64,000 bases of DNA from an uncultured Bacilli bacterium (GCA_910578855.1 CAJTRV010000004.1:5551-69550), one strand, 5' to 3'; shown: positions 48,680 through 62,840, numbered from the stretch's first letter. Numbers and translations are program-made. Notes: generated from the letters alone by a model not told the origin.

Positions 48680-48737
48680 AACAAATCCTCCTTCTATTTT
48701 CATTATATAATAATTTTCTAAAAAAATATAGATAAAT

Positions 48738-48767
48738 TGAATAAAATTGAATTATTTCATCACTATA
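48738..48767 (+). promoter_or_regulatory. Possible forespore (SigG/SigF-type) promoter of sspI
   Basis: TGAATA, a 17-nt spacer, then CACTATA. This is a by-eye match to the GHATR-17/18-CAxxxTA consensus. Confidence 0.35.
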
Positions 48768-48786
48768 ACTTAGAAAGGATGGTTAT

Positions 48787-48990
48787 ATGAATATCGATAT
48801 TAGAAAAAACATCATCGACAATTTTAAAGGATCAGATATTGAGGAGATTAAAACATCGATTGTCTCTTCAATTTCAGAACATCAAGAAATTACATTACCT
48901 GGACTTGGTGTCTTCTTTGAATTACTATGGAACAATAGCGATGAATCAAATCAAACCGAGATATTAAATACCATCAAAAAAGGACTTTAA
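48787..48990 (+). CDS. sspI: Small acid-soluble spore protein I
   Basis: 67 aa: MNIDIRKNIIDNFKGSDIEEIKTSIVSSI...LPGLGVFFELLWN. This matches my recollection of Bacillus SspI (LPGLGVLFEVIW core). Confidence 0.6.
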   Translation: MNIDIRKNIIDNFKGSDIEEIKTSIVSSISEHQEITLPGLGVFFELLWNNSDESNQTEILNTIKKGL

Positions 48991-53853: not shown

Positions 53854-54230
53854 AATTTTTCTCCTAACATTATTTCCATAATTTCTTGAATTCGATTAAA
53901 GTGACCATTTAGATAATGATACCCAATTAATGCTTCTAAACCAGTTGATTCTTTATAAGTTACAATGTCAGTATGCTTAGGATGACGAGATCCTTTATGA
54001 TTCCTGGCACGTTTCACAATCTGAATCTCTTCGGTTGTTAATGATTCCTGATCTAGTAACATTTTTAAATAACGACTTTGGGCTTTGGCACTAACATATT
54101 GAACAGCTTCTTTCTGAAGATCATTCACTTTACAAAGACCTTTTTTTAATAACAGAGTCCGAATAACAACTTCATAAATACTATCACCAACATAAGCCAA
54201 CGCCAAAACATTTAGGCAATCTGTTTTCAT
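53823..54230 (-). CDS. mrnC: Mini-ribonuclease 3
   Basis: 135 aa with motif LALAYVGDSIYE, which resembles the RNase III signature. It lies upstream of rlmB. Confidence 0.8.
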   Translation of the reverse strand: MKTDCLNVLALAYVGDSIYEVVIRTLLLKKGLCKVNDLQKEAVQYVSAKAQSRYLKMLLDQESLTTEEIQIVKRARNHKGSRHPKHTDIVTYKESTGLEALIGYHYLNGHFNRIQEIMEIMLGEKLCISMEKMSH

Positions 54231-55108
54231 ACAAGTTCCTCAATTCGATCAAAGGTAATTCCTTTTATTAGACCACTTTTCATATCGTTTAAAATGAGAT
54301 TCATCACGCGGTCATAATCAATTTCCCCACCCTGAATCATACATCCTCGACGTTTACCAATGATATCCAACGTGTTAACCATATCTTCTTCATCAATAGT
54401 CGTAATTCCATAACGTGATTCTAACTCCTGAGGATAATAAGTATATAGCATGTTCAAAATGTAACAGACCACATCATAAATAGGCAATACTTCCTCTTTA
54501 ATTGCCGTTAAACTTGCGAGATTAAGGGCAATAGTTTGATCATCAAACTTCGGCCATAGTACCCCTGGTGAGTCTAACAATTCAAGACGCTGATTGATGC
54601 GAATCCAATCCAATGACTTCGTCACTCCAGGACGGTTTCCAACATTGGCAACCTTTTTTCCAACTAAGCGATTGATCAATGTGCTCTTTCCAACATTGGG
54701 AATCCCGACAACAAGGACCCGAATACGTCTTGATTTCATTCCTCTAGCAATCATATCATCCATCTTATCTTGCATCATCGCTTCAGTCTTTTTCACTATT
54801 CCGGTTGTACTTTGTTGATGCTCTAAATCAACCCCCATTACTTGATAACCTAGTTGTTCATAATACCGAATCCAGCGCTCTGTTTCTTTTTTATCACATA
54901 GATCCATCTTGGTCATAATTAACAACTTCGGCTTATTTCCAATAATCGATTCAATATCTTGAATCTTTGATGAGTATGGCATCCGAGCATCGATTACTTC
55001 ATAAACAACATCAATAACACTCATTTTTTCCTTCATAATTCGCTTGGCTTTCGCCATGTGACCGGGATACCAGTTGATTGTCGTATTTTGTCCTTTATTG
55101 TCGTTCAT
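54227..55108 (-). CDS. rbgA: Ribosome biogenesis GTPase A (YlqF/RbgA), circularly permuted GTPase
   Basis: The start is at MNDNKGQNTTINWYPGHMAKAKR (ATG 55108, SD aaggaag). The G4-like MTKMDL precedes the G1 motif GIPNVGKSTLIN. The longer track ORF to 55156 lacks an SD. Confidence 0.88.
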   Translation of the reverse strand: MNDNKGQNTTINWYPGHMAKAKRIMKEKMSVIDVVYEVIDARMPYSSKIQDIESIIGNKPKLLIMTKMDLCDKKETERWIRYYEQLGYQVMGVDLEHQQSTTGIVKKTEAMMQDKMDDMIARGMKSRRIRVLVVGIPNVGKSTLINRLVGKKVANVGNRPGVTKSLDWIRINQRLELLDSPGVLWPKFDDQTIALNLASLTAIKEEVLPIYDVVCYILNMLYTYYPQELESRYGITTIDEEDMVNTLDIIGKRRGCMIQGGEIDYDRVMNLILNDMKSGLIKGITFDRIEELV

Positions 55109-55123
55109 TTGTTTCACTTCCTT
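55070..55123 (-). repeat. Junction A: native rbgA SD plus first 13 codons, the chromosomal member of the repeat family that bounds the cassettes
   Basis: The minus strand reads aaggaagtgaaacaaATGAACGACAATAAAGGACAAAATACGACAATCAACTGG and then continues into rbgA (TATCCCGGTCAC). It aligns with copies B and C up to AACTGG (plus ccagtt at 55070-55075). Confidence 0.7.
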
Positions 55124-55559
55124 TAGATTTATTTTTATATTTAACATATTCTTCAATTTTTTTATTATAGTTCTTTAAATCTTCTACAAATTGAGGCTTA
55201 AATTGATTTAAATAATCAATGATTAAATCAGCATATTCATCAATATTTTCATCATCAACTATATCTATGAGATATTTATTGATTCCTTTTTTAGTATTTA
55301 TTCTTTCTACATAAAAGGCTAACAAATTAGTTGGACCTATTTTTTCTTTTGCTGATAAAACAATAGAAATCAAATTTTCTCTTGATGCATAATATCTCGG
55401 TTTAAATCCATTTGACCTAGAAAATAATATCAAAGTACAACCAATAAATAATTTATCTGAACCATTTTTAGGAAATGTTTTGTTTGCAAATTCAATTAAA
55501 CTTTCTGTATTACCCTGTTCGTAATCATCATATAGTTCCATTAAAATTCTATTTATCAT
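55095..55559 (-). CDS. Hypothetical protein (cassette 1 cargo)
   Basis: 154 aa with SD gaggag upstream of ATG 55559. The last 13 codons read through the rbgA SD and start codon. No motif is recognised. Confidence 0.5.
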   Translation of the reverse strand: MINRILMELYDDYEQGNTESLIEFANKTFPKNGSDKLFIGCTLILFSRSNGFKPRYYASRENLISIVLSAKEKIGPTNLLAFYVERINTKKGINKYLIDIVDDENIDEYADLIIDYLNQFKPQFVEDLKNYNKKIEEYVKYKNKSKGSETNERQ

Positions 55560-55569
55560 TTTATCTCCT

Positions 55570-55845
55570 CTATTTATATAGACTTTTTATAACTCTATTA
55601 ATGCAATCTTTGGCACTTCTGTTATTATTTGAAAAACTAATTTTTACTAATGTCCCATTTACTTTAAAAGCATATGGATTCTTTGTGGAAGCAATAAAAT
55701 CCAATATTCTTTCATTACTAGGTTTTCTTCTATCTATTTTTATATTTGTTATTTCATCCACATCTTCTAATTTTACATCATCAAGATTTACATTTCTACA
55801 TCTTTCTAATTTTTCTGCTAATTCTTTAATATTATATTTATTCAT
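55570..55845 (-). CDS. Small DUF6870-like protein (cassette 1)
   Basis: The start is at MNKYNIKELAEK (ATG 55845, SD ggagtg). The pattern ...DVDEITNIKIDRRKPSNERILDFIASTKNPYAFKVNGTLVKISFS resembles small proteins I recall from Firmicute mobile elements. That assignment is from memory. Confidence 0.5.
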   Translation of the reverse strand: MNKYNIKELAEKLERCRNVNLDDVKLEDVDEITNIKIDRRKPSNERILDFIASTKNPYAFKVNGTLVKISFSNNNRSAKDCINRVIKSLYK

Positions 55846-55927
55846 AAAATCACACTCCATATTAATTATAAAATCAAATACAATTAATGTTAAATGTGCA
55901 ATTTTTTATTATAAATGATAATCTTTA

Positions 55928-56953
55928 CTAATCTTTATTATTTTCTGAAGTTTCTAATAATTTTGTACTTTCAATAAATTTATCGAAGTCAGAAATATAT
56001 AATTGGTCTTGTTTTTCCTTAAACTTATCATACTCTTTATATGCAAGTTCTTGAGCCACTTTATGAGATATTTTTCCTGCATCATGCAGTATTTCTTGCC
56101 CATTAAATTGTAAAAACGCATCCAATTTTTCTACCCAATCTTTCATTGTCATCGCATTATGATTTTCTGCTTGTAATTCAGCATAATCTAAATACATAGT
56201 AACTATTCTATTTAAGTTTTTTAATTCTTTTTCTGTCAAATAATTTTTAGCAATATCAACATCATATTTATAAATCGTTCCATCAGGAGAACCTGTCCAA
56301 TTTGTTAAACCCATATTGTCTTTTTCTGAATCAACTCTATTATAAATAATCTCTGCAGCAGTATTACCAGTGACTGAATAATGAAGTTTATTCTGCACAG
56401 TTTTAAAAAAAGTTTTAGTGATTTCTGAATCTTTATCATAATCAACACTACAAGATGAATATATATCTGTTATCTTTTGGTAAAATCTTCTTTCACTAGA
56501 ACGAATATTTCTAATTCTTTCTAGTGTTCTTTCAAAATAATCTTCTCCAAAAATATAATTTGGATTTTTTAATCTCTCGTCATCCATAACAACGCCAGTA
56601 ATTAAGTATTCTTTTAGAACTTTTGTTGCCCATATTCTAAATTGCGTTGCTTTTTTGGAATTAACTCTATAACCTACAGCAATAATCATATCTAAATTGT
56701 ATATTTTAGATTTTCTTCCACCTGTACTTTCGTCGGAAATTCCGACAGAAGTTTCTTCCTTAAGTTCACCACTATTTAATATATTATTAATATGTTCTGT
56801 TATGGTACTTCTACCTACTCCAAATAATTCAGCAATCAAATTTTGCGTCAACCAAATATCATTATTAATTAATAATACATTCACTTTGATATCATTATTA
56901 TCATCACGATATATTAAAAAGTCGTGGGTAGTTATTTGTAAATTATTTTTCAT
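55928..56953 (-). CDS. RhuM-family protein (N-terminal HTH, conserved RhuM core)
   Basis: 341 aa with motifs WLTQNLIAELFGVGRSTITEHINNI, YNLDMIIAVGYRVNSKKATQFRIWATKVLKEYL, SERRFYQKITDIY and MYLDYAELQA. Confidence 0.75.
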   Translation of the reverse strand: MKNNLQITTHDFLIYRDDNNDIKVNVLLINNDIWLTQNLIAELFGVGRSTITEHINNILNSGELKEETSVGISDESTGGRKSKIYNLDMIIAVGYRVNSKKATQFRIWATKVLKEYLITGVVMDDERLKNPNYIFGEDYFERTLERIRNIRSSERRFYQKITDIYSSCSVDYDKDSEITKTFFKTVQNKLHYSVTGNTAAEIIYNRVDSEKDNMGLTNWTGSPDGTIYKYDVDIAKNYLTEKELKNLNRIVTMYLDYAELQAENHNAMTMKDWVEKLDAFLQFNGQEILHDAGKISHKVAQELAYKEYDKFKEKQDQLYISDFDKFIESTKLLETSENNKD

Positions 56954-57209
56954 TTATTTTCACCGCTTTCTTATGTTCTTAAATGTCGTAATCACCTATC
57001 TAATTTCTATTATAAATAGCGCAAAAATTACTATATTTTTATGAATTTTTATTGTTTTTTATCATTTTTTAATGAAAACATGCAAGATATAAATTGGATA
57101 GTTTCCTTTATTTATAAGGGTTTAAGGGTGTTCTTAATTAAATCGTAATCAACCAGTTTATGTTTGCCTGATTTTGTCGATTTTCATTATTCATTTATTT
57201 CACTTCCTT
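56954..57209 (-). repeat. Cassette-boundary repeat B, containing a decoy rbgA 5' end
   Basis: Positions 57107-57209 match 59039-59141 at 99 of 103 nt; the rest is roughly 80% identical by eye. It contains SD, ATG (57194) and MNNENRQNQANINWLITI* (57138-57194), the core ccagtt at 57153-57158, and two cgtaatc motifs at 56987 and 57144. Confidence 0.8.
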
Positions 57210-57704
57210 CAATTCAATATTATTTTCTAATAAAACGCTTTCTAATGTTTCATTTTCGTTTATAATATATAAGTTCTCATAATTTCTTTGCAAACAATCC
57301 TCATAGAATGGAACAAATACATTTCCCAAGCCACTAATAAAACTTTCATTATTACCTCGATTTATACACTTTCTCTTTACATCTTCCCAATTATTAATAT
57401 TAGGATATGCTATACTGTATTTAATATTATTTTTATCGAAATAATCGAAGTGTTCTGGTTTTAATTGAACTAAAACAACATCATATTCCTTTATAGCCAT
57501 TCGAATGGCTTTATAGTAATTCTTTGGCCATTCACTATTTACTTCTCTTTTCGTTCCTTTTCTTGCTTCAACAGGTACATTTTCAAGATTAGTATTAATA
57601 TATTTAAAATTACTCGATTCTAAATCAATTACATTCCTATATTTTTTACCCAAAATGCTTTTTCCACACGTTGCAAATCCTGCAATTATTATTCCCTTAG
57701 CCAT
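57195..57704 (-). CDS. P-loop NTPase/kinase-like protein (cassette 2 cargo)
   Basis: 169 aa with Walker A IIIAGFATCGKS. The C-terminal KEVK and stop are encoded by the repeated rbgA SD segment, and the TAA abuts the decoy ATG (TAAATG). Confidence 0.55.
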   Translation of the reverse strand: MAKGIIIAGFATCGKSILGKKYRNVIDLESSNFKYINTNLENVPVEARKGTKREVNSEWPKNYYKAIRMAIKEYDVVLVQLKPEHFDYFDKNNIKYSIAYPNINNWEDVKRKCINRGNNESFISGLGNVFVPFYEDCLQRNYENLYIINENETLESVLLENNIELKEVK

Positions 57705-57993
57705 TATTTACCTCTTGTCTATATAAATTTTCTAAAATTTTAGTTAAACAATCATCTGCAGTTAAATTACTATTTTCTGAAAATCTTATTCTAACTAATT
57801 TCCCATTGACTTTAAATATATATGGGTTCTTTTTCTTCATTACAAACGCTAATATTCTTTCATTACTAGGTTTTCTTCTATCTATTTTTATATCTGTTAT
57901 TTCATCCACATCTTCTAATTTTACATCGTCAAGATTTACATTTCTACATCTCTCTAATTTTTCTGCTAATTCTTTAATATTATGTTTATTCAT
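57697..57993 (-). CDS. Small DUF6870-like protein (cassette 2)
   Basis: The start is at MNKHNIKELAEK (ATG 57993). The first 143 nt match the cassette 1 paralog at 139 of 143 positions, and the C-terminal half is diverged. It overlaps the next gene by 8 nt. Confidence 0.5.
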   Translation of the reverse strand: MNKHNIKELAEKLERCRNVNLDDVKLEDVDEITDIKIDRRKPSNERILAFVMKKKNPYIFKVNGKLVRIRFSENSNLTADDCLTKILENLYRQEVNNG

Positions 57994-58056
57994 ATTATAC
58001 CTTCTTTCTATAATAATTTTATTATTTAGAAAGAAATAACACAAATGTGCAAAATA

Positions 58057-58899
58057 CTAGATATTATCTTTTTCTCCTAATAGTTTTATCTTTTCTGCAT
58101 TATTAAGTATATCAAGTTGATACTTAGCAATGCTACTTAATATTTCAAATCTTTCTTCTTTGCTTTTTCCTTCTTTAATTAGTTCTGCATTATGTGATTC
58201 TAAATTAGATAATACTGTTAATTCATTTATCGATGCATAATCTCTAACATTTGAGTTTTTTGCTAAATTCGGATTAAGTTCTCTCCATCTTTTAGCAGTT
58301 GTGTTAAATAAGGCAACATTTAAAATATCTGCTTCTTCTGCATACTTTAACCATTCTCTATCTTTATAATAATCATTATCAGGTAATATATAATTTTTAA
58401 TTGCATCTGTATGAATAAGATAATTATTTTTGGTTAAGATTCTTTTTATATCCCATTCCCTATTTTGATTTTCTAACTCTTTTAGTCTTTCAAATTCTTT
58501 TATCAAATATAGTTTAAAAACCGGACTAATAGAAGATGCAAATTCAAAAGCAATGTCTTTATGAGCATAAGTTCCACCATATTTTCCACGCTTCGAATAT
58601 ATCCCAATTGCATTTGTTTTACTACACCATTCTGTAACACTTAGTGTAAAAGTATGAAGTCCTGCCTCACTTTTAAACCCGTCGAATTCGACGGAATTAA
58701 AATTTGGATTGTAAATTGACTCCCAAGTACCTAAAAATTCTAAAGTAATTCTATTTCTTAACCAATTTCTGATAACATCATCTGATGTAGATTTTCCTTC
58801 TTTAAACTTGGTAAAATCAGAAATACAAATATAATCGCTATCATTTATATTTGTTATGTTCACTTTAATATTTTGAACTTCAATTATTTTGTTTGGCAT
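58057..58899 (-). CDS. KilA-N domain protein
   Basis: 280 aa. ICISDFTKFKEG...IRNWLRNRITLEFLGTWE...GGTYAHKDIAFEFASSISP has the KilA-N layout. Confidence 0.7.
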   Translation of the reverse strand: MPNKIIEVQNIKVNITNINDSDYICISDFTKFKEGKSTSDDVIRNWLRNRITLEFLGTWESIYNPNFNSVEFDGFKSEAGLHTFTLSVTEWCSKTNAIGIYSKRGKYGGTYAHKDIAFEFASSISPVFKLYLIKEFERLKELENQNREWDIKRILTKNNYLIHTDAIKNYILPDNDYYKDREWLKYAEEADILNVALFNTTAKRWRELNPNLAKNSNVRDYASINELTVLSNLESHNAELIKEGKSKEERFEILSSIAKYQLDILNNAEKIKLLGEKDNI

Positions 58900-59141
58900 A
58901 TATTCGCCTCTTTTCCATGTCCTTAAAATTCGTAATCACCTATCTAATTCTTATAATAAATAATACCAAAATTATTAGTTTTTATATTTTTAATTATTTT
59001 TTAATGAAAATATGCAAGATCTAATCTAGATAATTTTCTTTATTTATAAGGGTTTAATGGTATTCTTAATTAAATCGTAATCAGCCAGTTTATGTTTGCC
59101 TGATTTTGTCGATTTTCATTATTCATTTGTTTCACTTCCTT
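58900..59141 (-). repeat. Cassette-boundary repeat C, containing a decoy rbgA 5' end
   Basis: It is homologous to repeat B throughout. It contains SD, ATG (59126) and MNNENRQNQANINWLITI* (59070-59126), the core ccagtt at 59085-59090, and cgtaatc motifs at 58931 and 59076. Confidence 0.8.
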
Positions 59142-59147
59142 TATTAT

Positions 59148-59321
59148 TTAACATTGAGAATTTAAAAAATTTGCAATTTGTTCTAAATTTTTAAATATTT
59201 TTCCATCATTTCTTATAACTATTCCTCTTGCACCATATCTCATTCTAGGCTCATTCATTTCAATCATACTTTCGCCTAAATCTTCATCAGTTATTTTACA
59301 TATTAATTTCATTAATATCAT
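59148..59321 (-). pseudogene. Possible 5' fragment of a NUDIX-type hydrolase gene (57 codons)
   Basis: My translation is MILMKLICKITDEDLGESMIEMNEPRMRYGARGIVIRNDGKIFKNLEQIANFLNSQC*. The RxGARGIVIxxDGKI stretch resembles the strand preceding a Nudix box, but the box itself is absent. Confidence 0.25.
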
Positions 59322-59338
59322 CTCGCTTTCATTTTATA

Positions 59339-59863
59339 TTACAACTTGTATTCTTTTATCTCACAATTCTTCAATCCACGATTTAAAAACCAACCATCAT
59401 TAATGCCATCAAAATATGCACTAAAAGCTTTTGAAACACCACTATGTGCAACAATTAAAACACTTTTATAATTTTGAGTTTTAAGTTCATCTAAAAAATT
59501 ATATATTCTATCAAAAAAGTCTTTTATATTTTCAGAGGTTCCATATTGAATTGTTGTATTATAATTCCAATATTCATCACGATTAGTTATTTCAAGAGGT
59601 TTACCACTTAAATCTCCACAACTTCTTTCTTGAATTCTATCATCAATAATAATTTCATTATTATTAGCATTAATAATATTAGCTGTGTGTTTTGCCCTAA
59701 TTAAAGGTGAAGAAATTATAATATCAAAGTTTATATCTTTAATTTTGTCTCTTAATTCTTCTGCTTGACTTATTCCAAGTTCAGTTAAATCTTCATCTTT
59801 TGTATTATATTGTTTCAATGCATTATGAGGTACTTCACCATGTCTTACTATATATATTTTCAT
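59339..59863 (-). CDS. Histidine phosphatase family protein (phosphoglycerate-mutase-like)
   Basis: 174 aa with the RHG motif IYIVRHGEVPHN, plus SSPLIRAKHTA and VAHSG. Confidence 0.75.
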   Translation of the reverse strand: MKIYIVRHGEVPHNALKQYNTKDEDLTELGISQAEELRDKIKDINFDIIISSPLIRAKHTANIINANNNEIIIDDRIQERSCGDLSGKPLEITNRDEYWNYNTTIQYGTSENIKDFFDRIYNFLDELKTQNYKSVLIVAHSGVSKAFSAYFDGINDGWFLNRGLKNCEIKEYKL

Positions 59864-59989
59864 TTATTGACTCCTTTTTTATAGAATTTTTATAGTAACA
59901 TTTTATCATCGAGGATATATATTTATTTTATTATTGATACCATTATATTAAAATCATACTCATTTTTACTATTTTTATCTGTTTCTAAG

Positions 59990-61254
59990 GTTATATGATT
60001 ATTCTCTGTTTTTCCTTTAAAATAAAGCAAATCAGCTATTTTAAATTGTCGTGTCATTTCGCGTACACAAGCCAGGAAGTCAGGCCCATATGTTCTTTAT
60101 TTGAATCAACTCTATTATATATAATTTCTGCTGTTTGTTTTGATACAGCAAAATGCATTTTGTTTTGTACTTTTTTAAAAAATTCAATTGATATTGGAGA
60201 TTTAAAATCATAGTCAATACTTGTAGCATATATATCTGTTATTTTTTGATAAAATCGCCTTTCTGATAACCTTATTTCTCTAATTTCTTCTAATAATTTT
60301 TCAAAATAATCTTCTCCAAAAATATAATTTGGATTTTTTTATCTTTCGTCATCCATAACAGCATCATTAATTAGATATTCTTTTAAAACCTTTGTTGCCC
60401 ATATTTTAAATTCTGTTGCTTTTTTAGAATTGATCCTGTATCCAACTACAATAATTACATCTAAATTATATATTTTGGTTTTATATTTTTTACCATCAGA
60501 GGCAGTTATCGAGGATTCCTCGATAACTGAATCCTGATTTAATGCATTATCTTTAGAAATTGCAGATTTTTTTATTTCCTTTTCATATAAATCTCTAGCA
60601 CCTTTAGCAACTCCTCCGCCTCTTTTTGCTACATTTAAATTTTCTTTTAAACCTTGCGGATGTTCTTCTCTTGCAATATCTCGTGTTGCAATCTCTCCTA
60701 TATTTGTTCACTAGCTTTCATTCCAGACCACCCCTTATAGATTTCATTGGTTTGGTTATGCCTCCTTCTTTCCAAACATCTGTAAGTTTAAATCTATCTA
60801 CAACCCCCATTAGTCTTGCCTTAATCCATTCATCAGAGTACCCTTTATTACGATAATAATTTACTGCTCTATTTATTGCAATTTCAGGATCAAATACTTC
60901 ATCAATCCTCTCACTACCAAGACTCGCTAACCAAACTTTAAATGGTTCGGCCTTAGGGCTAGAAACTGATTCAATTAATCTTAATATTCCATTTGTATCT
61001 AAAGTATCAGTTATACGATTTTTACCATCCCGGGCCTCCATTTTCAACTGCACGATTTCTTCGTGCAGTTCACTTCCTTCATAAATTAATCTTCTTTTTA
61101 AACCGCTCCAATAATTTCTTGGGATTTTTGCTTCAGTTAATACACTTATTACATCAGCAACGCTAAAATAATACTCTTCTTTTTCACTATCCCAAATGCT
61201 TCTTATTTCTTTACCTTCAAATAAATTTGATATTGTTTCTAATTTGTTGTTCAA
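59990..61254 (-). pseudogene. Bro-N / RhuM-core chimeric gene, inactivated
   Basis: The N-terminal Bro-N-like ORF (TTG 61254 to 60718) reads FEGKEIRSIWDSEKEEYYFSVADVISVL. A frameshift near 60715 follows. The RhuM core then continues in another frame (YNLDVIIVVGYRINSKKATEFKIWATKVLKEYL). An in-frame TAA at 60339-60341 sits where the intact paralog has TTA (DER-L-KNPN). The 3' end is truncated near 60054. Confidence 0.7.
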
Positions 61255-61396
61255 ATATAACACCTCTTTTCTATGGTCTTAAATGCCGTAATCATCTTTC
61301 TAATTCTTAAATAAAAATATGGAAAATTTAAAATCGTACAACCTCCTTATTTATAGGGATTTACTTAAGAGTGCAATAAATCGTAATCAAACAGTT
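61255..61396 (-). repeat. Cassette-boundary repeat D, the outermost, degenerate copy with no rbgA decoy
   Basis: It shares with B and C the blocks cttaaatgccgtaatca, tttataggg/tttataaggg and aaatcgtaatcaaacagtt. Homology stops at acagtt (61391-61396). Beyond that a different short frame, MRQEKRIAKVIKKVFHQSELTV*, reads into the core. Confidence 0.6.
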
Positions 61397-61503
61397 AATT
61401 CTGACTGATGAAAAACTTTTTTGATTACTTTCGCTATTCTTTTTTCTTGTCTCATTTTTCCCTTTTGATATATATCCATATTTTTCACTTTCTTTTCAAT
61501 AGT

Positions 61504-62064
61504 TTAAAGTTTTTTACCCATTACAATGGGTCTATCATCATAAATATGAATTCTGTTATTTATATCACTAATTAATGCAACAAGTTTTCTAGGATTTTCT
61601 ACTCCTTCAAAACTCATTCCATTTTTTATTTGTTCAATTAAATTATTAGCATAAAAATTAAAAGATATATCTCCATAATTATTTTTTTCTCTTGCAATTC
61701 CAATATGTTCTATATCAGATATATTTTCTATCCTAAATCCATTTTTAGAATTATATAGAGCTATCCTTTTATTGGTAATAAAATATTCATTATTTTTCTT
61801 TTTATATTTTAAGAATATATTATAAACTAATCCATAAATTAAACAAATTGTTAATATGCCCAAAGTAAGAAAAATTATCAAAATTTCAAAATTTAGTATT
61901 TCCCCACTTTTTATACCTATTATAATTAATATCCAAAATAATAACAATACGGCAAAACCTAATAAAAATCTACCATATTGTTTACTAGTCTTACTAACGT
62001 TTGAAACACCATAGAATAATATTTTTTCATTCTCTTCCAATTTATTTATAAACTCATTTTTCAT
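61504..62064 (-). CDS. Membrane protein with bacterial PH-like (YdbT/bPH_2-type) domain
   Basis: 186 aa. EKILFYG is followed by two TM segments and then YFITNKRIALYN, as in bPH_2 proteins. Confidence 0.45.
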   Translation of the reverse strand: MKNEFINKLEENEKILFYGVSNVSKTSKQYGRFLLGFAVLLLFWILIIIGIKSGEILNFEILIIFLTLGILTICLIYGLVYNIFLKYKKKNNEYFITNKRIALYNSKNGFRIENISDIEHIGIAREKNNYGDISFNFYANNLIEQIKNGMSFEGVENPRKLVALISDINNRIHIYDDRPIVMGKKL

Positions 62065-62201
62065 TTATCTCTCTCCTTACAATTTATTAAATATAATACC
62101 ATTTAATAAAAGAGAATTCCTTTATTAAAATCATTCTAGTTTTATCCACTATAGATTCCTCATAAGATAACCATTTATTCATTTCGAAAATGCATTTATT
62201 T

Positions 62202-62840
62202 TTATTTAAAGATTACATATGGAATGCCCATTTTATGATAAACATCATAAGCTCGTGGCCACGAGAACATTCGGGCAATTAATAAATTATAAAGTTCATC
62301 AAACATGATGATAGAACACAATGTAATTGAAAGCATTAAAAATAATTTTTTATTCATCCGTTTCGCAAGAAAAAAACACATAGGAATTATGACATACATC
62401 AACAATAAACTAGATAACCCAAAGAACATAACACTTCTTAAACAAACAAAACCATGAATGTTTCCAAAGTTTAAAATTTCCGAATTATAATCCCAACAAC
62501 GCATTCCATTTCCAATGATATACATGCCCAAACCTGATATATATTCGAGAATCCCAGTTGCAAAAAAACTAATTAAAAATACCCAGAATGGTTTTTTTCG
62601 ATGCTTGTAAGTTAATAGATAAATCATAATTGAACCTGTCGCATATATATTAATCCATGGTAAGAAATTACCACCTCGCCAATAAAATTGTTTCATACCA
62701 CCATTAAAATAATAAAATATAAATTCATAGATCCAACCAAAAATTCCGGTGATAACGATTAACAGACAACAAATTCCTAGCATCGTCCATTTATCAAACG
62801 AATGATTATTTTCTATATAATGTTTATACCATTTCTTCAT
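62202..62840 (-). CDS. Polytopic membrane protein (possibly the putative ABC-transporter type IV / DUF1113 family)
   Basis: 212 aa with about 6 TM segments and an N-terminal GIFGWIYEFIFYYF. The family call is from memory. Confidence 0.4.
   Translation of the reverse strand: MKKWYKHYIENNHSFDKWTMLGICCLLIVITGIFGWIYEFIFYYFNGGMKQFYWRGGNFLPWINIYATGSIMIYLLTYKHRKKPFWVFLISFFATGILEYISGLGMYIIGNGMRCWDYNSEILNFGNIHGFVCLRSVMFFGLSSLLLMYVIIPMCFFLAKRMNKKLFLMLSITLCSIIMFDELYNLLIARMFSWPRAYDVYHKMGIPYVIFK

Follow-up and report, generated by a model that had tools for sequence, protein, structure and literature searches.

The 64,000-nt stretch of DNA analysed here (the window; GCA_910578855.1, CAJTRV010000004.1:5551-69550) comes from an uncultured Bacilli bacterium and carries, directly 5' of ylqF/rbgA, the gene for ribosome biogenesis GTPase A, an array of three small gene cassettes, whose organization and possible mobility are the subject of this study. 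All cassette genes lie within 55095-61263 on the minus strand, which is also the strand of ylqF itself (54227..55108; gene calls, and MMR_HSR1/RsgA_GTPase Pfam matches on the identical locus L142). The GC content of this island is 24–28%, versus ~36% in the flanks. An earlier note, made from the window sequence alone, had described a series of cassettes from 55095 to 59863. Its gene calls and gene lengths, together with an 8-nt overlap (57697-57704) and a 10-nt gap (55560-55569), were all exact on re-examination; as to its extent, the feature actually reaches ~61400. All loci used for comparison (given as L numbers) are metagenome assemblies.

Cassette 1, the one nearest to ylqF, is intact and 2083 nt long (55072..57154, minus strand as all features described here). 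It consists of a right arm and linker, a first gene or head of the RhuM family (55928..56953, 341 aa; Pfam E 4e-109, Virulence_RhuM 364 bits at a gathering cut-off of 33.7; PADLOC candidate PDC-S05), a DUF6870 gene (gene a, 55570..55845, 91 aa; Pfam PF21757, E 7e-20), a cargo gene for a 154-aa protein of a small orphan family (55095..55559), whose stop overlaps the ribosome-binding site (RBS) and start of ylqF, and a left arm. Ahead of the DUF6870 gene lies a conserved promoter-leader (55846..55901; TTGCACATTTAACA-17 nt-TATAAT, then GGAGTG and ATG). Cassette 2 (57155..59086, 1932 nt), delimited by repeats and junctions, is likewise intact. It holds a KilA-N head (58057..58899, 280 aa; Pfam E 4e-19, 68.9 bits, cut-off 23.8; PADLOC candidate PDC-S22; phrog_2657), a second DUF6870 gene (gene b, 57697..57993, 98 aa; E 1.6e-16) and, with the 8-nt overlap already mentioned, a gene for a 169-aa P-loop protein with a nucleoside-monophosphate-kinase-like fold and the Walker-A motif GFATCGKS (57195..57704). 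The two DUF6870 genes, which score 71.1 and 60.5 bits at a Pfam cut-off of 24.4, have a 151-nt stretch in common at 95% identity.

Cassette 3 (59087..61392), farthest from ylqF, is decayed. It contains a frameshifted Bro-N open reading frame (ORF) (60718-61263; 34.5 bits, cut-off 25.6) within a pseudogene over 61263-60498, a truncated RhuM fragment (60575-60072), a histidine phosphatase gene (His_Phos_1, 59339-59863, 174 aa; E 3.5e-36, 125 bits, cut-off 21.7) and a 57-aa ORF (59148-59321), for which the former label NUDIX-like was not confirmed in any profile library. The head region had been taken for a decayed Bro-N/RhuM chimera. The decay is evident, but a frameshifted Bro-N gene beside a separate partial RhuM gene is more likely than a chimera. 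Residues 1–175, 181–195 and 219–288 of an intact 290-aa Bro-N homologue map to 61263-60498 in three frames. Because the Bro-N pseudogene spans most of this homologue and of RhuM only residues 46–219 are left, cassette 3 probably represents two decayed cassettes fused by one or more deletions.

Linkers and junctions

Neighbouring cassettes are parted by conserved linkers of ~250 nt (56954-57211 and 58900-59144; a third one, 61260-61409, is shortened). These repeats, and the pseudo-copies of the ylqF 5' end within them, escaped the earlier note, as did what appears to be the organizing principle of the locus, site-specific insertion at the ylqF 5' end. A linker opens with GGAAGTGAAAYAAATGAA...AACTGG, a pseudo-copy of the ylqF/rbgA RBS, start codon and first ~16 codons. 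The likeness to ylqF ends at AACTGG, with the break at AAC|TG, and the linker proceeds as TGATTACGATTTAATTAAG. A conserved right arm, GTTGATTACGATTTA, stands at the beginning of each cassette, and a left arm at its end provides a working substitute for the ylqF RBS, start codon and ~12–16 N-terminal codons, up to the core ATCAAC-TG-G. Within linker 1 (56954..57211; repeat families, nhmmer E 2e-62) the pseudo ylqF RBS and 5' codons occupy 57207-57156, the TG 57155-57154 and a motif A, TGATTACGA, 57151-57143; beyond an A/T-rich segment come motif B (56994-56986) and the RBS of the head gene. Linker 2 (58900..59144) has its pseudo ylqF 5' end at 59139-59088, the TG at 59087-59086, motif A at 59083-59075 and motif B at 58938-58930. 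In every linker TGATTACGR, with TTTAA behind it, is present twice as a direct repeat at a distance of ~150 nt, namely as motif A after the core and as motif B just ahead of the head RBS. Since L055 and L066 have a single copy, with the DUF6870 leader right behind it, the 150-nt segment between the motifs seems to be optional.

The junction with ylqF itself (55065..55121), defined by strain comparison and junction alignments, is attR-like, i.e. it resembles a regenerated bacterial attachment site (attB). It is arranged as RBS GGAAGTGA, ATG, cassette-borne left arm, core ATCAAC-TG-G and ylqF body GTATCCCGGTCAC. The TG of this core is at 55072-55071, and the junction falls on ylqF codons 12–13 (Asn-Trp). 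The true ATG of ylqF is at 55108, and codons 1–12 (55108-55073) form an N-terminal extension which stems from the attachment site (att) left arm. The YlqF proteins of these genomes have a variable extension of ~12–17 residues, encoded by the cassette att arm, ahead of the conserved NWYPGHM; in RbgA of B. subtilis, the Trp at the equivalent position is preceded by only about four residues. At the other end of the array, the leftmost, attL-like junction (61254..61492) comprises a relic ylqF 5' end (61492-61394), the core AACTG (61396-61392), motif A (61389-61381), the shortened linker and motif B (61294-61286). Its flank AAAAAAGTTTTTCATCAGTCAGAATTAAC matches the functional ylqF 5' end of the same-species strain L148 at 28 of 31 positions; judged by sequence, a former ylqF start has therefore been retained there as a relic, in the way expected of an attL.

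The junction motif AAYTGNNTGATTACGA has exactly three copies in 64 kb, every one at a cassette boundary; with up to two mismatches there are seven matches in the window versus 1.9 expected. The pseudo-copies encode MNNENRQNQANINW and are closer to the ylqF start of another species (L005, MENRQNQANINW) than to the window's own MNDNKGQNTTINW. L002 has three copies of its 44-nt ylqF start, which are 100% identical. For a consensus, 77 internal and 54 true ylqF junctions were aligned. Both types have the left arm ...AATCGACAAAATnCGACAAATATmAAC TG G in common and part directly after AACTGGT, internal junctions continuing with TGATTACGATTTA and true ones with ATCCAGGnCATATGGC. The consensus core ATCAAC-TG-GTTGAT forms an imperfect dyad about the non-palindromic TG, with an outer AAATCG...CGATTT inverted repeat, a symmetry which looks like that of a recombinase site. 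An RNA element in the linker, attC-like or a riboswitch, was considered as well and rejected: the Rfam search of the linker returned nothing at E <= 1, and its folding as single-stranded DNA was not significant compared to shuffled sequences (z = -1.16).

Variation within the species

Contigs of the window's own species were recognized by an identical mini-RNase III protein. They show at least five different configurations 5' of ylqF. Their identity with the window (~99%) sets in only at 55079/55075 (L143, L148), i.e. at AAC|TGG. In L143 and L144, the place directly 5' of ylqF is taken by genes for PemK, for a short resolvase and for DUF6870 (91 aa), and then by those for a tandem pair of large serine recombinases (LSRs; 569 and 528 aa); their ylqF has a different N-terminal extension, joined at the same ATCAAC|TGG. 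The contig L148 was examined as a candidate for an empty ylqF site, which was rejected as a different terminal cassette is found there, and no empty site was detected among the strain contigs of this species. Another contig, L146, is 100% identical to the window over cassette 1 save an 82-nt deletion (window 55768-55848), by which the start of the DUF6870 gene is lost; decay is therefore still under way in the population.

On the basis of the repeats, junctions and strain differences, we consider it likely that 55072-61392 is a tandem array of three mobile cassettes of ~2 kb, which lack a recombinase gene of their own and were inserted site-specifically in the first codons of ylqF/rbgA.

Occurrence in other genomes and metagenomic data

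A scan of one genome per species yielded 77 loci, whose sources are without exception uncultured gut Bacilli, 'Tenericutes' or Mollicutes. As seen with a hidden Markov model of the linker and tblastn, linkers occur on the ylqF strand only and the arrays are always co-oriented with ylqF, which in 53 out of 75 loci is found 0.4–7 kb 3' of the last DUF6870 gene; most of the other loci stop at a contig edge. A 20-nt att-core pattern revealed 92 further contigs from human-gut, rumen and other metagenomes, with the arrays again beside ylqF. Up to 5–6 linkers are present in arrays elsewhere. DUF6870 genes in other metagenome-assembled genomes, too, belong to co-oriented arrays immediately 5' of ylqF, despite differing outer genes: rplS-lepB upstream and rnhB-topA downstream elsewhere, mrnC-rlmB-sigH in the window. 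An 18-nt right-arm pattern gave 41 single matches in IMG/VR, of which L110 alone is a real linker; the others were rejected, apparently being due to chance. Past the last linker of L024 (11040-19155; also in L019, L021 and L053) lie genes for a ParB_N protein (342 aa), for a protein of 231 aa and for an adhesin of 909 aa with thioester and SpaA domains, with no ylqF within 9 kb. It looks like a larger, possibly conjugative element occupies the site in L024.

The heads of the window cassettes have very close relatives in other species (RhuM 94–97% and KilA-N 92–97% identity; medians 95–96%), whereas the YlqF proteins of those same genomes are only 44–60% identical (about 53%). Near-identical heads together with such divergent YlqF are hard to explain without recent horizontal transfer. 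The decay follows a polarity. In six loci decay has struck the distal DUF6870 gene but spared the one proximal to ylqF; no locus shows the reverse; the window, with cassettes 1 and 2 intact and cassette 3 decayed, fits in.

These data also bear on the idea that the cassettes are no mobile units at all but the decayed right-hand ends of successive full-size integrative and conjugative elements (ICEs) or prophages, formerly equipped with DUF6870 and LSR genes, of which deletions left no more than these remnants. The order Resolvase-DUF6870-LSR-LSR-ylqF in L143, with LSRs at the cargo position, would be in agreement with such an origin, and so would the visible degradation of cassette 3 and the larger, possibly ICE-like inserts at the site in L019, L021, L024 and L053. 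Yet the cassettes are of uniform size (median 2158 nt) with full conserved ends on both sides, their ORFs are intact and under purifying selection, and heads are 95–97% identical across hosts with ~53% YlqF identity. Independent deletions would not repeatedly yield the same 2-kb units. We regard this explanation as very improbable. A prophage origin was rejected because the DUF6870 matches in IMG/VR are short chromosomal fragments (two of them with ylqF), except L097–L100.

Recombinases associated with the arrays

LSRs are the sole recombinase class found among the array ORFs tested. An LSR of 411–414 aa is located inside linker-bounded cassettes in at least ten arrays (L026, L048, L053, L063, L065, L087, L157, L192, L224, L230; for instance LSR411 at L065:15867-17102). 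The second arrangement is the pair of LSR569 and LSR528 (L143:5207-8459): DUF6870 and two LSRs are found directly at ylqF in L143 and L144, and also in L088 and L092, with ylqF within the contig. The short IMG/VR contigs L089–L091 and L093–L096 likewise have DUF6870 and the pair, L100 has three LSRs after DUF6870, and the phage contig L097 holds genes for a holin, an endolysin and DUF6870, then one LSR. Altogether, DUF6870 is immediately followed by LSR genes, between one and three of them, in L076, L088–L100, L143 and L144. According to Pfam, these LSRs possess the domains Resolvase, Recombinase and Zn_ribbon_recom. Against the NCBIfam models for Ccr, LSR569, LSR528 and LSR411 score 66–98 bits at curated cut-offs of 900; they belong to the LSR superfamily and are not Ccr orthologues. 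No tyrosine recombinase or integrase and no transposase was found among the array ORFs scanned; tyrosine recombinases were likewise absent from the flanking ORFs scanned and from the gene calls of the loci, a scan that was not exhaustive for every ORF. Three species have an RVT_1 reverse transcriptase gene (510–550 aa) adjoining the ~411-aa LSR gene in linker-bounded cassettes (L048:338-3201; L026:5994-8817; L053:13870-16631).

Could the arrays have arisen without any dedicated recombinase, by homologous recombination or gene conversion between linkers and DUF6870 genes, e.g. after DNA uptake? Within the array, 90–95% identity is seen among the ~250-nt linkers as well as over the first 150 nt of the DUF6870 genes, heads and cargos are independent modules between such conserved segments, and most arrays have no recombinase gene. 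But both the strain differences and the likeness between linker and ylqF stop sharply at AAC|TG, and the first insertion in a naive ylqF would have had homology on one side only. Furthermore, LSR genes recur in arrays, an LSR element sits at exactly the same junction, and the core carries a dyad symmetry like that of a recombinase site. As the sole origin of the arrays, homologous recombination is thus decidedly unlikely. Added to site-specific insertion, which we prefer, recombination from linker to linker probably contributes to the shuffling of cassettes.

DUF6870

The DUF6870 family has more than 500 close homologues. The codon-position entropy of 0.28/0.17/0.69 makes it a genuine protein under purifying selection. 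Its leader of ~58 nt contains the best sigma-70-like match of the region (11/12). In over 50 loci DUF6870 has this leader in front of it, behind head genes as well as behind a bare linker. Because this leader is constant whatever precedes, the heads seem to be optional, inserted where the linker meets a module of DUF6870 and cargo. Indeed, DUF6870 is also found without a head, straight after the linker, always with its own promoter-leader. A structural relative of DUF6870 was not found, nor did we find papers on it in the literature.

Since DUF6870 is the sole gene common to the cassettes of head, DUF6870 and cargo and to the autonomous LSR elements, it might be an accessory or regulator of LSRs, e.g. 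a directionality factor, a role we suggest tentatively on the basis of genetic linkage. A universal link between DUF6870 and LSRs was rejected because of the distant homologues L152, L154 and L156; it holds for some branches of the family only. One of these, in L154 (6001-12258), is located beside two reverse-transcriptase genes and a ResIII helicase gene on the opposite strand, with no LSR in view.

Heads, cargo and the question of a defence function

The order head, DUF6870, cargo, which had been recognized before in the window, recurs in other species. In the DUF6870-seeded loci, ~45 out of 60 fully bounded cassettes (median length 2158 nt) show it, with one or two cargo genes. The linker-seeded set from metagenomes gives a different picture: here, 21 of 40 bounded cassettes have a single, unrelated gene, the median length is 1.3 kb and the order occurs in two of 40. 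This grammar is therefore a common subtype of a wider cassette system.

Four types of heads were identified, KilA-N, RhuM, Bro-N and, as the fourth, a YhcG/DUF1016 PD-(D/E)XK nuclease. A domain shared among the heads was sought and rejected, as hhalign detected no homology among the four families (best pair RhuM and Bro-N, P = 0.009). Heads and cargos assort freely, any head with any cargo. Frequent cargo genes code for GNAT acetyltransferases, ADP-ribosylglycohydrolases, cytidine/dCMP deaminases, ASCH proteins, HAD and histidine phosphatases, furthermore for a nucleoside deoxyribosyltransferase-like protein, PNP/UDP phosphorylases and M20 and S51 peptidases. ABC and two-component modules, reverse transcriptases and HerA are occasional. 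GNATs, ADP-ribosylglycohydrolases, peptidases and transporters dominate. The 154-aa cargo has no match in Pfam, PHROG, NCBIfam, PADLOC or PDB, and its family comprises only 55 representative clusters in 1.84 billion proteins; homologues with 63–86% identity are present in other ylqF arrays. According to the earlier note, housekeeping orthologs of the cargo genes in fixed chromosomal contexts would have spoken against its reading; homologues of the 154-aa and the 169-aa protein are instead cassette cargo upstream of ylqF in other species.

The same note had seen in each cassette a three-part system of DNA binder, small adaptor and effector, which might serve in defence. Such a coherent system is contradicted by the free pairing of heads and cargos, by heads without homology to each other and by DUF6870 genes that are headless or linked to LSRs. 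The defence part fares little better, although the heads do speak for it: three of them match PADLOC models end to end (PDC-S05 5e-140, PDC-S22 7e-116, PDC-S13 6e-69), which are candidates defined by genomic association and not validated defence systems. Cargo genes as defence genes were rejected, as few of 68 cargo proteins match PADLOC defence models. Overall, a defence role is weakly supported. In its strict form it would make each cassette a self-contained three-gene anti-phage or abortive-infection operon and the array a defence island. Besides the candidate models, the co-oriented and closely packed genes would suit such an operon, as would the many nucleotide-related cargos (deaminases, a nucleoside-monophosphate-kinase-like protein, phosphatases, a nucleoside deoxyribosyltransferase) and the HerA, reverse transcriptase or ABC-ATPase genes in a few cassettes. 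The free assortment with four non-homologous head families argues against it, and so do DUF6870 genes beside recombinases and in a phage contig, and a set of linker-seeded cassettes in which the majority has a single gene. We consider this reading unlikely. The RhuM, KilA-N, Bro-N and YhcG heads and the small-enzyme cargos look like interchangeable payloads of mobile cassettes.

Proposed mechanism

Insertion could proceed as follows. In the circle formed by an excised cassette, the left arm would be joined to the right arm, as in the linkers, to give an attP-like site. As no LSR gene is present in the window or in most arrays, LSR action in trans is assumed: the enzyme would recombine the circle with the ylqF site at the TG of the Asn-Trp codons. 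It might be supplied by sister cassettes with the ~411-aa LSR or by the larger elements with DUF6870 and two LSRs, which appear to use the same site. The incoming left arm would take over the RBS and N-terminal extension of YlqF and the old start would stay as a pseudo-copy, a step which can be read directly from the linkers. The junction on the ylqF side would again be attB-like and the upstream one attP-like, and repeated insertion and excision may be possible. Since a cassette brings a left arm that imitates the chromosomal one, an attB-like site would be regenerated at ylqF; with this site regenerated, new cassettes would be expected to stack nearest to ylqF and older ones to decay farther off. 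Loss of a cassette would join the upstream left arm straight to TGGTATCCCGGTCAC.

Cargo stops overlap a ylqF-type RBS or start at 55095-55121 and at 57195-57207, and no terminator was predicted inside the array. This suggests read-through and translational coupling, by which the essential gene ylqF may be kept expressed; the promoter of the DUF6870 module, with coupling via the cargo, could serve this purpose.

Several points weigh against an array of mobile, site-specifically inserted cassettes. No excised circle, empty site or activity was observed, and there is no LSR in the 64-kb window nor in most arrays surveyed. The crossover dinucleotide and the half-sites were deduced from sequence comparison, and the B' arm (GTATCCCGG...) is unlike the P' arm. 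The conserved linkers and DUF6870 genes could permit shuffling by homologous recombination. A sigma-70 scan of the linker itself gave no strong match. The distant DUF6870 homologues L152, L154 and L156 are not followed by an LSR, and the counts on cassette grammar come partly from a DUF6870-seeded, hence biased, sample.

More far-reaching is the possibility that the arrays belong to an undescribed cassette-capture platform of uncultured gut Bacilli, comparable to the integron, driven by LSRs and with the ylqF start as target. Each cassette of 0.5–2 kb would come with a translated att arm that restores both the YlqF N-terminus and the insertion site, and DUF6870 would be a new family of LSR accessory or directionality proteins by which cassettes without recombinase could move between distant hosts. 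We put this forward as a possibility with more doubt than confidence. If true, regular integron-like arrays of tiny mobile cassettes would exist in Firmicutes, based on serine and not on tyrosine recombinases. There would be a concrete att site with candidate recombinases, the ~411-aa LSR and the LSR pair, and DUF6870 would gain a candidate role in LSR control, which is relevant to genome-engineering tools. It might also account for RhuM, KilA-N, Bro-N and YhcG genes in variable regions of the 'defence island' type, as mobile cassettes would carry them in these genomes. The locus would mark a hotspot of rapid gene flow in little-known gut bacteria.

Neighbouring genes

Beyond the leftmost junction, 61504-62840 contains genes for membrane proteins of 186 and 212 aa. 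The latter (PF06541 in the gene calls of L142) is also found just 5' of the arrays in L015, L081, L181 and L186, with 58–68% identity. It has no att motif at its sides in the window and could be either a conserved neighbour of the arrays or a gene left from an old cassette. At a greater distance, L142:15241-15444 (corresponding to window about 48700-48990, minus-strand neighbourhood) holds a gene for the small acid-soluble spore protein SSPI, adjoining a pyruvate:ferredoxin oxidoreductase gene. The SSPI gene points to spore formation in this uncultured 'Bacilli bacterium' of the mouse gut.

Comparison with known systems

We found no published description of this array in the literature, and none that links serine recombinases to ylqF; the only reports of integration at the rbgA 5' end concern ICEs of streptococci, which use tyrosine integrases. 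These ICEs and related integrative and mobilizable elements insert in the 5' end of rbgA such that the RbgA N-terminus is preserved and the upstream region is replaceable (PMC4701971). Gene and gene end are the same as here. The streptococcal elements are full-size and use tyrosine integrases, whereas in the present arrays only serine recombinases were seen and the inserts are mini-cassettes in regular order. With respect to ICESt1 and ICESt3, att-flanked elements without recombination genes (CIMEs, cis-mobilizable elements) reportedly pile up beside autonomous ones.

The closest parallel is offered by composite islands of the staphylococcal cassette chromosome (SCC), together with the Enterococcus cassette chromosome. 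SCC, ψSCC and the Enterococcus cassette chromosome are inserted at the end of rlmH, with its frame kept, by Ccr serine recombinases, often a tandem pair, and tandem cassettes without ccr, some of them with defence genes, are mobilized in trans (PMC11470126, PMC6222049). The present arrays resemble them in direct repeats that hold the end of the target gene and bound each element, in tandem cassettes without recombinase and, as proposed here, in insertion by LSRs at one end of a housekeeping gene that is conserved and related to the ribosome. However, SCC is located at the 3' end of rlmH (orfX) and the window array at the 5' end of ylqF/rbgA; with such a target each cassette must therefore bring an RBS, a start codon, N-terminal codons and a promoter. 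Furthermore, SCC cassettes measure 3–60 kb compared to 0.5–2 kb here, and the arrays differ by their ~250-nt highly conserved linkers, their non-Ccr LSRs, DUF6870 alongside the recombinases and their hosts, uncultured gut Bacilli. As for the PADLOC PDC candidates, the heads behave here as optional payload modules of mobile cassettes.

Integrons (sedentary chromosomal ones and CALINs) come to mind because small cassettes, mostly with one or two genes, are lined up in the same orientation between putative recombination sites, the newest apparently nearest to the insertion point, and because their cargo is rich in GNATs and other small enzymes. But the ORFs scanned did not include an IntI, attC hairpins are absent, and the linkers are direct repeats. 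The cassettes described here have promoter-like leaders of their own and the array lies inside the start of an essential gene. The array is neither a member of the SCC family nor of the integron family.

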